Numbered from the stretch's first letter, positions 10,577 to 17,840 are shown. The stretch is DNA of 20,000 bases from an uncultured virus (IMG/VR IMGVR_UViG_3300031787_000018) (IMGVR_UViG_3300031787_000018:112426-132425), one strand, 5' to 3'. Notes: generated by a model from the sequence alone, not told the origin. Made by a program: numbers and translations.

Positions 10577-10816
10577 ATGGAAAATAAAGAAATGGTAAAT
10601 CACCCGCAACATTATGGTGGTAAAGATAATAAATATGAGGCAATTAAAGTAATAGACGCGTGGGGTTTGGGGTTTTCTTTAGGAAATACCGTAAAATACA
10701 TATCTAGAGCAGGTAAAAAGAACCAAGAAAAGGAGTTAGAAGACCTTAAAAAGGCATTATGGTACTTAAATCACCATATCCAAACATTAGAGAGTAAACT
10801 GAAAGAAAATTCGTGA
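10577..10816 (+). CDS. DUF3310 (SaV-like) phage protein
   Basis: VNHPQHY...GFSLGNTVKYISRAGKK...EDLKKALWYL signature. Confidence 0.88.
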   Translation: MENKEMVNHPQHYGGKDNKYEAIKVIDAWGLGFSLGNTVKYISRAGKKNQEKELEDLKKALWYLNHHIQTLESKLKENS

Positions 10817-10819
10817 TAT

Positions 10820-12505
10820 TTAATCACCCCACACCCATTTTTTATTACCACAATCCCAAATAATGTTGTAACCACGTTCATACATTATTTGTTTTTCAGT
10901 CTTATTCGGATCATAACCATCTTTAATTAATTTATCTTTCCTAAAATTATATCTGTGCATTCTAACCAAGTCTTTGAAATACCAATAATTTAATTCGGTA
11001 TTTTTTAAAAATTTAAAGCCCAATTTTTCATATAAACCACCATCAAAATACCTGTTATCGGAATAAGATACGACATTTTTTGGTTTATAATTTTGTATGA
11101 AATGTCCGAACAATTTTGAAGCCCCACCAACTATTTTTGTGTTTAATTTATTACAAAATCTTAACATCTCATATTCATAATTGTTGTTACCCACACCTGA
11201 ACGATTACCGAATGTCATAACAGAAACCAATTCGTCTTTATAATATAAACCCAAATTTATAGACGCGTTAACAGACCCTTGAATGTGGTTATTACCCAAA
11301 AATTTCGATGATTCTTTATTGGTTATTGTTTTTATAACACACTTTCTTGCGAATATATTGGTATCGAATATGTTTAAATTAGCTTTTATAATAGATAATA
11401 CAATATCTTTTTTAAATAACCACTCATCTTCAAAAATATGTAATAGTTTAATATTTTTATCTTTACATAATAACGTCTTATTTATGTGATATGTTTTACT
11501 TTTATTTATTTCACTATGCCAATACAATCCATCATATTCTATGGCTAAATTTTTCTGCGGTATGAAAATATCCAATTCACAACCACCGAGTATCTTTTTA
11601 TTATTAATCTCAACTAACATCCCAGTCAAATTCTCTATATAACTAACAATATCTCTATGTGGTTTGGTGTAGTTTGATCCGTTAAGTGGGAAACAATTGA
11701 TGCATATTTCATACCCCAACCTATTTCTTTGATTAAATAAATAATTGTCTATTTTAAAAATTTTGTCACATTTATCACATTTTAATGTTAATACTTTATT
11801 TTCGTAATCAATAAAAGTATACCCACTGAAATTATTTAATTTATCTATTATTTTGTTTTTAAAAATCACATTTTTAAACTCTTCACTTTGTGAGTAGTTC
11901 TCTACATTAAATTTTGTTAAATTAGTTTTTTTAGATTTTTCTTTAACTTCTTCTAACTGAAAAGGGTTTGATACGCCGTATTTTTTAATAAGATTCTCTT
12001 TTCTTAAATTCTTTATATCGTCAGAATACCAATGGTGGGTAAAACCGTATCTTTCTAAATTAGTTTTTTTTACTTTATTTTTTATTTCATCATTATGTAA
12101 ACTACATGTTACACCATACTTTTCTAAATTAGTTTTTTTTACTTTATTTTTTATTTCATCATTTCTTAAAGGACTTGTTACACCATATTTTTTTACATTA
12201 GTTTCCTTTATTTTATTTTTAGTATTTTGGTTATTTACACCACATTTTATAGAACAGTTTTTATTATAACCCTTTTTTAGTGAGATAAATTTCACATCAT
12301 TTACCCCACAAACCTCACATTTAGGTGGTTTGTTAGTATTATTTATATATAAATAAATTTTCTCTTTAAAAGTTAAGCTGTCTTCTTTATTGAAGTTTAT
12401 TATTTTTGAGTATAAATCGTAGTTATTGTCCCGTAACCAACTTTCTCTAACCCTAAGACCGTTATTATTTTCAGTAAAATAATCCAGTAAATTTATATTA
12501 TCCAT
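10820..12505 (-). CDS. free-standing Hef-like putative homing endonuclease (Zn ribbons + TNLEKYG repeats + Vsr/DUF559-like nuclease + GNAT/Mom-like C-domain)
   Basis: CEVC..CSIKC and CDKC..CINC; KKTNLEKYG repeats; ELDIFIP..LAIEYDGLYWH..LLHIFEDEW; then FARKC..NHIQG..LRFC..GGASKL..SYSD..LYEKLGF. ATG 12505 preferred over TTG 12526 because ATATTTAT lies on the minus strand at 12533-12526. Confidence 0.75.
   Translation of the reverse strand: MDNINLLDYFTENNNGLRVRESWLRDNNYDLYSKIINFNKEDSLTFKEKIYLYINNTNKPPKCEVCGVNDVKFISLKKGYNKNCSIKCGVNNQNTKNKIKETNVKKYGVTSPLRNDEIKNKVKKTNLEKYGVTCSLHNDEIKNKVKKTNLERYGFTHHWYSDDIKNLRKENLIKKYGVSNPFQLEEVKEKSKKTNLTKFNVENYSQSEEFKNVIFKNKIIDKLNNFSGYTFIDYENKVLTLKCDKCDKIFKIDNYLFNQRNRLGYEICINCFPLNGSNYTKPHRDIVSYIENLTGMLVEINNKKILGGCELDIFIPQKNLAIEYDGLYWHSEINKSKTYHINKTLLCKDKNIKLLHIFEDEWLFKKDIVLSIIKANLNIFDTNIFARKCVIKTITNKESSKFLGNNHIQGSVNASINLGLYYKDELVSVMTFGNRSGVGNNNYEYEMLRFCNKLNTKIVGGASKLFGHFIQNYKPKNVVSYSDNRYFDGGLYEKLGFKFLKNTELNYWYFKDLVRMHRYNFRKDKLIKDGYDPNKTEKQIMYERGYNIIWDCGNKKWVWGD
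12052..12163 (-). repeat. 69-bp-period coding repeat (23-aa unit containing NDEIKNKVKKTNLE(K/R)YG)
   Basis: Identical 43-mer TTTCTAAATTAGTTTTTTTTACTTTATTTTTTATTTCATCATT at 12052 and 12121; more diverged units flank them. Confidence 0.9.
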
Positions 12506-12555
12506 ATTGTATGACTTATTTATCAATAAATATATTCATTTTTAGCCAAAGTCAA

Positions 12556-12563
12556 ATATTTAT
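12556..12563 (+). promoter_or_regulatory. ATATTTAT motif upstream of the likely true DHH start
   Basis: 17 nt upstream of ATG 12581, supporting that start rather than TTG 12694. Confidence 0.5.
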
Positions 12564-12580
12564 TTAAAAAAGTGTAAATA

Positions 12581-14016
12581 ATGATAATATCAGAAAAAAT
12601 ATTTGAAAAGATCCTGATAGAAAGTGGAATACGTAATATACGTAATTTGTCTTATAGATACGATAAGGCAAAAATCTACTTTCATCAGGATCTTTGAGGG
12701 AACTTGATGGTGTTACAACGGCTATAGCTATGAAAAAATACCTAGAAGATAACGGTATTAAGGTTGTAGAGTGTGAAGTGATACAATACGGTGACCAAGA
12801 ATTTTCCATTAAAAAACCAATGGCAAGAGGTGATATCATGCCAGTTTTAGTTGACTTCGCTCACGGTAAACCGATGTTTGTTATACATACAGATCATCAC
12901 GATAAGCAAGTAGGTGCTGAAGCTGGAGCTTCCAAATCATTTAGACACTCTAGGTCCAACGTCGAGACAATTTCTCAAATAATATCAACTAAAGAATTAT
13001 TCCCTAGTTTTGATATTAATATGATTTCCACTATAGATAGTGCTAATTACGCTAAAATGGGTATATCTCCTGAACAGGTGATGAATTATGTATTTGGGTT
13101 AGATAAAGAGAAAAGTTTAGAGGATAACAAAAAGGCTATGGCTCTTGTTTGTAATAAACTTTTGTTGGCTTATAAAAACAAACCAAGATTTTTAGAAAGA
13201 TTGGTTATGGAATCTAGTCCATCATTGTTAAACATATACCAAAACATAGTTAGAATGGCTAAAGAAGAGGGTTATTCCTCACCAGAGGTTATGTCACAAT
13301 ATTCTAAAGAATATGGTGAAACTATGAAGAATAGTGAAAATGTGAAATATGATGAAAAAACAGGTATTATTTCACAATATGGTGGTGGTTCTATGATTAA
13401 ACCCGGATCTTATGACAGATACGTACCTTTTAAAAACTTTCCTGACGCTAACTTCTTAATTATAGCTTGGCCTTTAGGTTTACTACAGGCATCATGTAAC
13501 CCATTTAAACCTGAAAGGTCTATAAAGGGTATAAATTTGGGTGAAATAGCACAGGAAGTATTAAAAAAACACGAACAGGAGTTAAAAAACACAATAATAA
13601 GTGTAGACACTTTAAAATACTTCGCCGAAAAACACAAATCTTTTTCAGAGGAGAGTGTTGGTTTTACATTTAAAGATTTAATGTCACTATATGGTGATAT
13701 TGGTGAAGGTGTTAGGGGTTTAAACACAATTCCAGAAGGTGCCGCACCTGATTATACGGTTGAAAGATGGCAAAACGCTATAAAAAATGTGATGGACAAA
13801 CATTACTCAACTTTGGGTGAAAGAGAAATTAAGGCATTAAAAATGTTGTCTATAACTGGTTGGGATATTATCCAAGCAAACAGTGGGGGACACAAATGTA
13901 TAACTAACATATCGGGGTTAATGTATTTCGGCAAGGATGGTGTTCTTTGGCTTAAAAAATTACAATCCGAATTTATTGAAGAATTAAAAAACTTAATATT
14001 ACAAAATGAAAACTAA
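12581..14016 (+). CDS. DHH-family phosphoesterase in two frames (12581..12694 joined to 12706..14016, 474 aa if the 11-nt gap is skipped)
   Basis: Segment 1 ends KAKIYFHQDL-TGA; segment 2 resumes DGVTTAIAMK, rebuilding motif I (HxDxDG). Downstream are VLVDFAH, HTDHH, TIDSA and C-terminal SGGH (DHHA1), with no other disruption. Confidence 0.85.
12692..12705 (+). other. candidate translational bypass site: take-off CTT (12692-12694), stop TGA (12695-12697), matched landing CTT (12703-12705)
   Basis: CAT CAG GAT CTT tgagggaa CTT GAT GGT; removing 11 nt restores HQDLDG exactly. Confidence 0.65.
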
Positions 14017-15317: not shown

Positions 15318-17840
15318 TTACTCACTTTTATCTTCTTTCTTTTTAGAAGATTTAGGTTTTTTAATTGTAACCTTAATGTCTTCGATTTTGGTATCGTAAG
15401 ATATTGTTACAATATCACCTAATGAGATGTCACCGTCTAAGACTTTTTCCGCGACAGGATCTTCAACGTATTTTTGAATGGCTCTGTTAAGTGGACGTGC
15501 TCCATATTTTTCGTCATAACCTTTTTCAATCAAATACTCTTTTAAAGTATCATCTAATTTAAGAGTATAACCCATTTCTTTCACACGTTCAATTACATCA
15601 TTAAGTGGGATATCGACAATTTTACCAATTTCTTCCTTACCTAAAGATTTGAAAACAATAACGTCATCAAGACGATTTAAAAATTCAGGTGAAAATGCCT
15701 TTTTAAGGGAGTCCTGAATAACATTTTCAGAATCATCATCAATTCTATCAAGTTTAGCTTTGGTACCATACCCTACACCAGTACCAAATTCTTGTAGTTT
15801 ACGAGCTCCTACGTTTGATGTCATAATGATTAAACAGTTTTTAAAATCAACCTTACGACCTAAACCATCACTTAAATGACCATCATCAAAAACTTGTAAA
15901 AGAATGTTGAAAACGTCTGGGTGTGCTTTTTCTACCTCATCCAATAAGATAACAGAAAAAGGTTTTCTTCTGATTTTTTCGGTTAATTGACCACCTTCTT
16001 CGTACCCAACATATCCTGGAGGAGCTCCAATCAGTTTAGATACTGAATGTTTTTCCATGTATTCCGACATATCAACACGAATTAAAGCGTCAGTTGAACC
16101 AAAAATACTTTGAGCCAACATTTTAGCCAAATAAGTTTTACCAACACCAGTAGGACCTAAAAACATAAAAGAACCAATTGGTTTGTTTTTGTTTTTAATA
16201 CCTATTCTATTACGTTTAATAGCTTTGGTAATCTTATCGATAGCGGAATCCTGACCAATAACTTTTTCTTTAATCTCTTTATCCATGGTACGGAGTTTTT
16301 CGGTTTCTGTTTGACCTACTTTGGTTACAGGTATACCAGTTACCATAGATACGACTTTTGCTACGTCATCTTCTGACACAACAGGTCTTGATTTATCCAA
16401 AGATTTTGACCACTCGTTAGTTGCGTTTTCTAACTCATCTTGTAATTTCTTTTCTTCATCACGAAGTTTTGCTGCGTCTTCATAACGTTGAGCCTTCACT
16501 ACATCGATTTTTTGTTGACCTATTTCGGAAATTTTTTCTTCCAAATCCATAATATTTTTTGGTGGTTTGATGTGAACTTGTAGTCTTGCACCAACCTCAT
16601 CCATAATATCAATAGCTTTGTCAGGTTGTTCACGGTCATTAATATAACGGTCAGCTAAATTAACGCAGGCTTCAATAGCTTCGGTTGTATAATTAACCTT
16701 GTGATGGTCTTCGTATTTATTCTTAATATTGTTAAGAATAATCAAAGTTTCATCTTTTGACGGCGGTTCAACAAGTACCATTTGAAAACGTCTAGCTAAA
16801 GCTCCGTCTTTTTCTATGTTTTCACGATACTCATCAAGAGTTGTAGCCCCAATACATTGTATTTCACCCCTCGCTAAAGCTGGTTTAAGAATGTTAGAAG
16901 CGTCCAATGAACCTGAAGCGTTACCGGCTCCAACCATAGTATGAATTTCATCTATGAATAAGATAACATCGTCAGCTTTTTCTAATTCCTGCATGATACC
17001 TTTCATTCTTTCTTCAAATTGTCCACGGTATTTAGTTCCAGCAACTAAAGACGCTAAGTCCAAACTAACCACACGTTTATCAAAAAGAATACGAGGACAT
17101 TTTCTTTCAACAATCTTAAGAGCAAGTCCTTCGACTATTGCTGTTTTACCTACACCTGGTTCCCCAATCAAAATCGGATTGTTCTTTTTACGTCTTGAAA
17201 GAATTTGTGAAACCCTTTCAATTTCATCTGCTCTACCAATAATTGGGTCTATTTGACCGTCAGAGGCTAGTTTAGTAATATCCCTACCAAAGTTATCTAA
17301 GATAGGTGTTGTTGACTTACCCTGTGAAGCTTTTTTAGCTTTCTTACCGTAGTCTTCAATTTCTTCAAAATCTCCTGTCATATTAATTATTTTTTGTTCT
17401 TTTAAATTTAATAAAGTTTCTTTAAAAGTTCTATAGGTTATACCCTGATTTCCTAAAACTTTTGTTCCATCTAATGTACGATTTTTAAGTATTGATAAAA
17501 CAATGTGTTCAACATTTATTGTATCATCCTTTAATTTATCTGATTCCAATTCAGCCGAACTTAAGGCGTGTTTGGAGGATTCACTTAAGGGAACTATTTT
17601 TACTTCTACAATATTAGGGTTTTTTATTTTAAGTCTCAAGTAGCCTTCCAATTTTTCCATTAAATCTGTTACATCTGAACCCATTTCTTTAAAAACATCA
17701 ACCGCACCATTTTCTTTATCATTAAAAACTGCTAATAATATGTGTTCAGGTTTAATTTTGTTGTCATTAAGTCTAATTGATTCCTTAAAAGCACTTTTAA
17801 GAATACCTTTTAATTTAGGTGTCATTTTTTTCATCATCAA
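15318..17840 (-). CDS. clpC: ATP-dependent Clp protease ATP-binding subunit, ClpC type
   Basis: Two Clp-N repeats (EHILL, EHIVL), AAA1 [14 protein letters not shown], short UVR-type middle domain ([11 protein letters not shown]), AAA2 [21 protein letters not shown] pore loop, VGY ClpP-binding-type loop, GARPL. Confidence 0.95.

Follow-up and report, generated by a model that had tools for sequence, protein, structure and literature searches.

A candidate mobile endonuclease and ribosome-hop cassette interrupting a DHH phosphoesterase gene in uncultured freshwater phages

The window analyzed here is a 20,000-nucleotide stretch (IMGVR_UViG_3300031787_000018:112426-132425) that forms the end of a 132-kb virus record, about 67% complete, with 29.8% G+C and 22 tRNA genes. 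Within it, a gene of the DHH family is interrupted by 11 nucleotides that begin with a stop codon, directly beside a free-standing homing endonuclease gene. Reading rightward, the locus consists of a DUF3310 gene (10577-10816, + strand; PF11753, E 9.7e-16), its right-hand neighbor, the Hef-like homing endonuclease gene (10820-12526, - strand), a divergent intergenic region between the two gene starts (12527-12580), and the DHH gene in three parts. Exon 1 (12581-12694, + strand) holds 38 codons, from ATG to a putative take-off leucine codon, CTT (12692-12694). The coding gap (12695-12705, + strand) comprises the stop codon TGA (12695-12697), five nucleotides and a putative landing leucine codon, CTT (12703-12705). 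Exon 2 (12706-14016, + strand) carries the Asp-Gly of motif I, motifs II-IV, the GGH motif and the stop codon. An earlier interpretation made from the DNA alone (the sequence-only reading) had proposed that endonuclease and gap travel together as a mobile 'homing endonuclease + bypass' cassette. Programmed translational bypassing has one well-studied phage example, gene 60 of T4.

The interruption falls at a well-defined place. In exon 1, the frame ends I-Y-F-H-Q-D-L (CAT CAG GAT CTT for its last four residues, 12683-12694) and meets TGA, and D-G-V-T-T resumes in another frame at 12706 (GAT GGT). We compared the gene with viral DHH homologues (80 of roughly 452 viral contigs; individual loci are denoted by L numbers). 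An unbroken F-H-x-D-x-D-G motif was present in 76 of 79 evaluable viral relatives and in two huge-phage relatives, and therefore exactly 11 nt (12695-12705) are extra in the window. The gap separates L37 from D38 within the DxD metal site of motif I (D-L|D-G). Both aspartates, D36 and D38, are invariant in 22 full-length relatives, in keeping with the earlier statement that the near-palindrome formed without the 11 nt lies over the most conserved codons of the gene; D87, D100-H101-H102, D148 and G431-G432-H433 are invariant in the same set. A Pfam scan of the window's two DHH fragments returned no DHH domain at E 0.01, and PF01368 was matched, below the Pfam cut-off, by all 22 full-length gap-less relatives (best E 1.1e-5). 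An AlphaFold model of the gap-less protein of L005 (predicted local distance difference test score, pLDDT, 75.8; predicted template modeling score, pTM, 0.72) was searched with Foldseek: all 10 matches at E <= 0.001 belonged to the DHH family (DhhP, RecJ, PAP phosphatase, PggH, GdpP/NrnA), with probabilities of 0.97-1.00 and template modeling (TM) scores of just 0.21-0.46. We assign the interrupted gene to the DHH phosphoesterase superfamily from motifs I-IV, the GGH motif and the two-domain DHH/DHHA1 fold predicted for its relative. As a separate observation, the huge phage LR745206 (L002:4600-4940) has an extra in-frame DHH segment that fails to align with the window protein and has no counterpart in L001, which on reading we would guess to be a helix-turn-helix.

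The gap is a real feature of this DNA and not an assembly artefact. The same sequence is found in three further records (L003, L004 and L315, each with 0 differences from the window). DNA contigs from two further runs (X10, X13) cross the gap with 0 differences and no joint, as do contigs from two RNA libraries (X15, X16). RNA libraries can contain DNA, so that the latter show the 11 nt to be kept in assembled sequence and are not proof of transcription. A sequencing or assembly error, or removal of the 11 nt at the RNA level, would be the most trivial explanation of the broken frame. We found nothing in its favor, and the agreement among all these records and contigs makes its probability negligible.

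The endonuclease gene encodes a protein of 568 aa when read from TTG 12526; its likely start is ATG 12505, and measured from there the gap begins 190 nt away (12695), the distance given in the sequence-only reading (169 nt from TTG 12526). The position between the DUF3310 and DHH genes and the opposite orientation are likewise as that reading described them. Residues 22-566 match phrog_3339, 'homing endonuclease' (E 1.9e-135), the Pfam match is PF24308 DUF7487 (E 3.6e-22), and blastn detects weak DNA similarity to Campylobacter phage genes annotated 'Hef' or 'Hef-like homing endonuclease'. By sequence, the enzyme thus belongs to a phage family that contains Hef-like proteins. E317, D319, H337, E366 and D367, candidate residues for the composite E, D, x, H, D motif of the Vsr-like fold, are invariant in six homologues at 36-42% identity; a PF18741 match stays below threshold (E 0.0037), as does a Mom-like match in the long C-terminal region. 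Searches against solved structures, with the single sequence or a profile, gave no sequence match. The 132-kb record holds one copy of the gene. Similarity to L085 sets in at about 12534-12545, which marks the right edge of the endonuclease insertion. Contigs from two RNA libraries leave 12507-12580 and 12479-12598 uncovered while DNA contigs continue through, a weak hint that the two divergent genes have separate transcripts.

To place the gap in a wider set, we collected inserts at the same codon by pattern scans and from loci identified through a neighboring gene (the IMG/VR and metagenome sets overlap, some contigs being the same assemblies in both). In scans for any insert between F-H-Q-D and D-G-V, 45 of 56 and 2 of 13 matching stretches were true DHH sites, the others being chance matches. 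A metagenome scan for I-Y-F-H-Q-D-Leu-stop in all synonymous codons (80 loci of 86 matching stretches) gave 45 true sites and 35 loci without a D-G landing, and three further insert loci came from searching with the neighboring HNH-like gene described below. There are 22 distinct inserts, with lengths of 6, 8, 9 or 11 nt. Every one opens with TGA, TAG or TAA right behind a CTN leucine codon, and 20 of the 22 close with CTT, CTG or CTA just ahead of the Asp-Gly codons, giving the pattern Leu, stop, 0-5 nt, Leu. The 11-nt class, to which the window insert belongs, includes at least 11 variants. In 29 distinct gap-bearing alleles exons 1 and 2 are both open, with a median pairwise ratio of non-synonymous to synonymous substitution rates (dN/dS) of 0.22 for the 27 codons before take-off and 0.10 for the 80 codons after landing. 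The gap-bearing DHH gene is therefore kept under purifying selection on both exons.

These data bear on the simplest reading of a broken frame: that the DHH gene of the window is dead, the 11 nt being an insertion that shifts the frame, possibly left by a repair event and conferring resistance as well, so that no complete protein is made. The frame is indeed broken with a stop immediately after, and the window lineage has no internal variation in which selection after the insertion could be tested. Nevertheless, the selection on both exons across distinct alleles, the recurrent Leu-stop-Leu form of the inserts and the window's own exon 2, whose frame stays open for 436 codons at 90% identity to L005, make a dead gene very improbable.

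Because the inserts have the Leu-stop-Leu form and the codons before the gap are under purifying selection, a hop by peptidyl-tRNA-Leu is the best reading of the gap. A hop from the first leucine codon to the second would be the sole single reading that restores H-Q-D-L-D-G at all insert lengths, and is most likely. Read-through would put extra residues inside the DxD motif and could not serve the 8- and 11-nt forms, which change the frame. Read-through or a changed genetic code is further discounted by the occurrence of TGA, TAG and TAA at the same position. TGA is an ordinary stop codon in these phages, since it terminates 58 of 223 conserved neighboring open reading frames (ORFs) in loci with a TGA gap. 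None of the 22 tRNAs found in the record, which is about 67% complete, reads a stop codon; tRNA-Leu(UAG) and tRNA-Leu(UAA) are among the 22 clustered tRNA genes (contig G000, 18472-37750, outside the window). A +1 slip at CTT-T would reach TGA after three codons, a -1 slip lacks a slippery partner, and a start at TTG 12694 would lose strand 1 and the first aspartate of motif I. The hop reading has two points to its discredit. Two of the 22 inserts end in GTT or ATA, which are not leucine codons, and the hairpin predicted over the window gap (a 7-bp outer and a 4-bp inner stem, 11 pairs, -9.9 kcal/mol) is no better than those of shuffled sequences (z -0.81; 42 of 200 shuffles equally stable). 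A hairpin as the RNA signal was also set aside on the grounds that its outer pairs are lost in the common CAC/GAC alleles.

A second feature sets gap-bearing alleles apart. The six codons Ile-Tyr-Phe-His-Gln-Asp just before take-off (12674-12691, + strand, in the window) are nearly fixed at their synonymous positions in gap-bearing alleles only: ATC occurs in 50 of 55 gap-bearing versus 4 of 40 gap-less contexts, TAC in 52 of 55 versus 10 of 40, TTT in 53 of 55 versus 18 of 40, CAG in 53 of 55 versus 6 of 40, and GAC in 48 of 55 versus 10 of 40. Codons beyond these six are equally variable in both groups. The fixed codons may act as a signal for recoding, contribute to protection against a nuclease, or do both. 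A further anomaly is found in L094, L106, L120 and L137, which are identical: these have a 6-nt gap and, at the 84th codon after landing, an in-frame TAA at the serine of a conserved R-S-N-V-E. The rest of the frame is open, and the TAA may mark an additional recoding site, a recent nonsense mutation or a different code.

Comparison with close relatives places endonuclease and gap in a single segment of foreign ancestry. In the gap-less relatives L005-L029 the DUF3310 gene is followed by the DHH gene with about 30-140 nt between them. The window backbone is 85-94% identical to L005, except for the endonuclease, which is absent from that position in L005, and a patch at 12545-12730 (+ strand) that runs from the end of the intergenic region through exon 1 and the gap to about 25-30 nt further on. 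Over this patch L085 is nearest (87% over 142 nt; 86-90% in 50-nt bins) while L005 falls to 50-79%, and the sequence returns to its L005-like state within about 30 nt after the gap. The endonuclease, exon 1 and gap of the window thus form one recombinant block, 10820-12730. A similar footprint is seen in L078: what sets it apart from its gap-less sister L068 is a 0.9-kb HNH-like ORF, the divergence of exon 1 and the gap, after which identity is back at about 90%. On a tree of DHH proteins (120 rows, 83 distinct), the gap state changes at least 10 times, and the window, L078 and L085 are each nested in gap-less clades. This is the pattern to be expected if homing started at a break near motif I and co-converted the flanking DNA, with the nuclease later lost or replaced in some lines. 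The ORF containing DUF3310 upstream in L085 (36-2969) is itself unusual, with 977 aa compared to about 603-607 aa in relatives, and the extra length may come from an inserted intein, a fused gene or the like.

We then asked which genes stand beside the gap in other phages, clustering the flanking ORFs of 122 viral loci. The most frequent partner is a cluster of ORFs of about 300 aa, on the same strand and directly upstream of the DHH gene (ending about 10 nt before its start in L078). It is found directly upstream at 19 of 44 gap-bearing loci and is missing from all 67 gap-less loci whose upstream sequence reaches 1250 nt or more (Fisher p 1.2e-9, in a set partly selected for having the gap). 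Since the gap had itself been the selection criterion for most of the gap-bearing loci, we also searched with this protein alone: of the 23 loci recovered, 22 were evaluable, and in all 22 the gap lies 101-139 nt downstream. The protein is a candidate HNH nuclease: in the motif H-x-D-H...N...N, D241, H242, N264 and N273 are invariant and H239 is at least 90% conserved (40 sequences). Aligned by VIA-align, residues 197-279 have as best match the Gme HNH nicking endonuclease (Z 5.0, a weak score; root-mean-square deviation 4.2; 72 aligned residues), followed for this C-terminal domain by the GVE2 HNH enzyme and Cas9 HNH domains (Z 3.5-4.1). Distant relatives bear DUF7487, NUMOD3 or intein domains. 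The ORF has no match in Pfam, in a PDB sequence search or in Foldseek at E <= 0.001, and PHROGs matches only families of unknown function. It is not homologous to the Hef-like protein of the window (hhalign probability 0.3%).

Other nucleases occur in the same surroundings. At L289, a LAGLIDADG_3 gene (PF14528, E 7.6e-12, 45.8 bits versus a cut-off of 22.5) takes the place upstream of the gap. An ORF of about 266 aa at L265 (741-1538) also matches LAGLIDADG_3 (E 1.9e-8) and has cluster members in L095 and L108, the L095 relative matching phrog_4645 'endonuclease' (E 5.4e-48); the L265 and L095 ORFs each stand just ahead of a DNA methyltransferase gene that abuts the gap-bearing DHH gene. At L259 (3756-4883), a gene of the TnpB/OrfB_IS605 type (PF01385, E 1.7e-26; TNB domain, E 4e-24) precedes an 11-nt-gap allele by about 1.2 kb, and on inspection of its translation an ORF at L324 (4106-4411) looks like part of a similar TnpB-type gene.

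Hef-like genes also occupy the other side of the DHH gene. Between the DHH stop codon and the next gene, Hef-like genes 36-45% identical to that of the window are found in L005/L006, L019, L105, L114, L123, L143, L149, L300 and L327, in gap-less and gap-bearing phages alike; both flanks of the DHH gene are landing places for endonucleases. L019, whose DHH site is gap-less and reads H-M-D-T-D-G, has an HNH endonuclease gene as well (L019:2656-3873; phrog_374, E 1.5e-32) beside DUF3310, with a short duplicated piece of DUF3310 on its far side.

The co-occurrence of gap and adjacent endonuclease predicted by the sequence-only reading therefore holds in one sense and falls short in another: the gap accompanies every evaluable HNH-like gene and none of the 67 gap-less loci has that ORF, but the usual partner is HNH-like and the Hef-like gene stands upstream of a gap in one lineage only (the window, L003, L004 and L315). 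This is among several observations that weigh against a cassette in which the window's own enzyme is the active partner. Among the best 80 of 90 IMG/VR relatives, the next after that lineage is 44% identical to the window enzyme, with none between 44% and 100%, so that co-occurrence of this enzyme with the gap is seen in a single lineage. In L005, L006 and L019 the Hef-like genes lie downstream of DHH alleles that have no gap. L085, the nearest relative of the window patch, has the foreign exon 1 and an 11-nt gap with no endonuclease nearby, and 11-nt gaps elsewhere stand beside HNH-like genes or have no nuclease (L259, L280, L281, L308, L320, L325). More broadly, 25 of 44 gap-bearing viral loci lack an endonuclease-like ORF directly upstream, about 25 of 45 loci in the metagenome set have no adjacent endonuclease, and the phylogenetically independent pairs all point in the same direction but number only seven (sign-test median p 0.25-0.5).

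One explanation that would accommodate these observations is that the HNH-like family introduced the gap together with its exon-1 patch, or that the two spread by themselves as an allele for resistance; the Hef-like gene would then be a later, independent invader of the intergenic slot with another target, and the 11 nt would confer no immunity against it. It draws support from the gap at all 22 HNH-like loci, from diverged HNH-like genes (37-39% identical) directly upstream of four gaps of the 11-nt class (L279, L291, L303, L329), from related patches with a gap and no nuclease in L085, L280 and L325, from the unrelatedness of the two nucleases and from the Hef-like genes on the 3' side of gap-less alleles. 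Against a late and unconnected arrival of the Hef-like gene, the foreign block extends, uninterrupted by backbone DNA, from the endonuclease through exon 1 to a point about 30 nt after the gap, and in the T4 system replacement nucleases retain the same cassette (bioRxiv 10.1101/2022.08.31.505936). We consider this explanation possible, though rather unlikely.

The many gaps without a nuclease could also mean that selection maintains the gap as a recoding device in its own right, one that might, for instance, set or adjust how much DHH enzyme is made, and that endonucleases merely gather at a recombination hot-spot. The absence of an adjacent endonuclease from over half of the gap-bearing loci fits such a device, and the six-codon synonymous constraint confined to gap-bearing alleles suggests a signal at the mRNA level. 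The HNH-like ORF, however, never occurs without the gap, and the gap enters gap-less clades along with a nuclease gene and a foreign exon 1. Moreover, orphan bypasses that persist after nuclease loss are known in the T4 system (bioRxiv 10.1101/2022.08.31.505936). A self-sufficient recoding device is accordingly improbable.

The sequence-only reading had also pointed to a near-palindrome of 16 bp that forms when the 11 nt are removed. The 16-mer does form, with 7 of 8 pairs, and 16-mers this palindromic occur at 130 of 132,410 positions in the genome record; the symmetry, however, is not conserved in nature. It is largely a by-product of the His/Asp codons: 22 distinct natural gap-less alleles score 3-8 of 8 in the same register. 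We therefore rejected the palindrome as a recognition signal, and the argument from it is weak. The prototype of the Vsr-like EDxHD enzymes, I-Bth0305I, is described as acting as a dimer on a pseudo-palindromic site (PMC3239194).

Together, the repeated insertion at one codon, the linkage to nuclease genes and the recombinant block favor the mobile endonuclease and bypass cassette, convergent with mobA/gene 60, that had been proposed; what has to be amended is the identity of the partner, which is usually HNH-like, with the Hef-like enzyme in that role in a single lineage. The mobile block of the window would comprise 10820-12730: the homing endonuclease gene, the first 38 DHH codons and the 11-nt insert in motif I. 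In a mixed infection, the endonuclease would cut a DHH gene that lacks the gap, within or close to its 5' end, and repair from the donor would bring in the endonuclease gene along with exon 1 and the insert. The insert, perhaps together with the fixed synonymous changes upstream, would spoil the recognition site and make the carrier immune. During translation, with CUU in the P (peptidyl) site and UGA in the A (aminoacyl) site of the ribosome, peptidyl-tRNA-Leu would release its codon and re-pair with the CUU 11 nt downstream, and decoding would restart at GAU GGU to give a normal H-Q-D-L-D-G. In most relatives the resident nuclease would be the HNH-like ORF of about 300 aa, the Hef-like enzyme (of the Vsr-like 'EDxHD' type) holding the slot in the window lineage as a replacement or substitute. 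In this scheme the cut position, the immunity, the hop and its efficiency are what we infer.

Our confidence differs among the parts of this model. The cassette logic, as a convergent counterpart of mobA/gene 60, appears well supported by the comparison of loci. That the Hef-like enzyme cuts the gap-less motif is suggested by its position and by the continuous recombinant block in one lineage, and a cassette in which it is the working nuclease has, in our judgment, about an even chance of being correct. We are similarly divided on the broader proposal that this is a second, independently evolved system of endonuclease and ribosome hop: a portable micro-gap of the form CUN-stop-0-5 nt-CUN with six fixed codons, used in turn as an immunity module by at least three unrelated nuclease families (HNH-like, Vsr-like Hef and LAGLIDADG), and crossed by an efficient peptidyl-tRNA-Leu hop, possibly via a phage tRNA-Leu(UAG), in the DxD motif of a DHH enzyme encoded by widespread freshwater jumbo phages.

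With regard to the wider setting, DNA identical to that of the window is also present in a 318-kb IMG/VR contig, and we therefore regard the virus as a jumbo phage. The runs that contain the stretch are public and labeled as freshwater, sediment and other metagenomes. Further along the window, an ORF of 840 aa (15318-17840, - strand) has a translation that reads like a double AAA+ chaperone of the ClpA/ClpB type.

A literature search, with most subscription journals outside its reach, found no report of a DHH-linked bypass or of natural short stop-hops tied to homing endonucleases. If the model is correct, protecting a target with an insert and rescuing the protein by a ribosome hop would be a general strategy of selfish nucleases. 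The 22 natural gap variants would form a series for dissecting efficient short hops. For annotation, it would warn that small frame breaks beside phage endonuclease genes do not necessarily mark pseudogenes.

Several known systems invite comparison. The mitochondria of Magnusiomyces reportedly contain 'byps' (the account is attributed to Lang et al., 2014), mobile inserts of 27-55 nt in many genes that are said not to be tied to endonucleases. Byps share with the present gaps the principle of short untranslated inserts in coding genes with matched take-off and landing codons, whereas the gaps described here occupy one site in one gene of many phages and are linked to endonucleases.

Hef-type enzymes belong, in the classification of Taylor et al. 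(PMC3239194), to the Vsr-like 'EDxHD' family, and in T4-related phages Hef and SegH replace mobE and mobC (bioRxiv 10.1101/2022.08.31.505936). Similarly, the window has a Hef-family enzyme in a slot held by another nuclease family in relatives. In contrast to the prototype I-Bth0305I, the window enzyme has no sequence match to a solved structure and has a long C-terminal region with the sub-threshold Mom-like match. Stop hops seen with reporters in E. coli are low-level events, one amino acid being decoded from 9 nt (Weiss et al. 1987, O'Connor et al. 1989, via bioRxiv 10.1101/2022.08.31.505936). In these a peptidyl-tRNA crosses a slow-to-decode stop codon to reach a matching codon, as predicted for the present gaps, and their exact form corresponds to the 6-nt class here. 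Whereas the E. coli hops are synthetic or accidental and inefficient, the gaps in the present set are natural, occur in dozens of lineages, also span 8, 9 or 11 nt, and lie in a gene under selection.

The closest parallel is the gene 39/mobA/gene 60 region of T4. There, the bypass insert of gene 60 blocks MobA (Bonocora et al. 2011, cited in Manning & Atkins, bioRxiv 10.1101/2022.08.31.505936). According to the same preprint (bioRxiv 10.1101/2022.08.31.505936), every nuclease carrier has the bypass, orphan bypasses exist, Vsr-like or GIY-YIG genes replace mobA in some cassettes, and some keep the bypass after nuclease loss; Manning & Atkins still call the gene 60 cassette unique and its function a puzzle. 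We rejected the possibility that the present element is a homologue of the T4 mobA/gene 60 element itself, given a target of the DHH family in place of the topoisomerase II large-subunit gene, a gap of 11 nt in place of about 50 nt and a nuclease of phrog_3339/DUF7487 in place of a MobA-type HNH enzyme. Its HNH-like, Hef-like and LAGLIDADG nucleases and its gap have no sequence relation to mobA/gene 60, and its hosts are uncultured freshwater jumbo phages. The interrupted gene encodes a DHH phosphoesterase and not a topoisomerase, the gap measures 6-11 nt and not 50 nt, the predicted hop is between leucine CUN codons and not glycine GGA codons, there is no significant hairpin, and there is no split into two tailed genes. 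Like the T4 region, it combines a free-standing endonuclease with a coding gap in the conserved metal-binding part of an enzyme gene. It also shares with gene 60 the matched take-off and landing codons, the stop codon after take-off, a patchy distribution with repeated insertions, orphan gaps without a nuclease, and a nuclease that can be replaced by other families, including Vsr-like ones.

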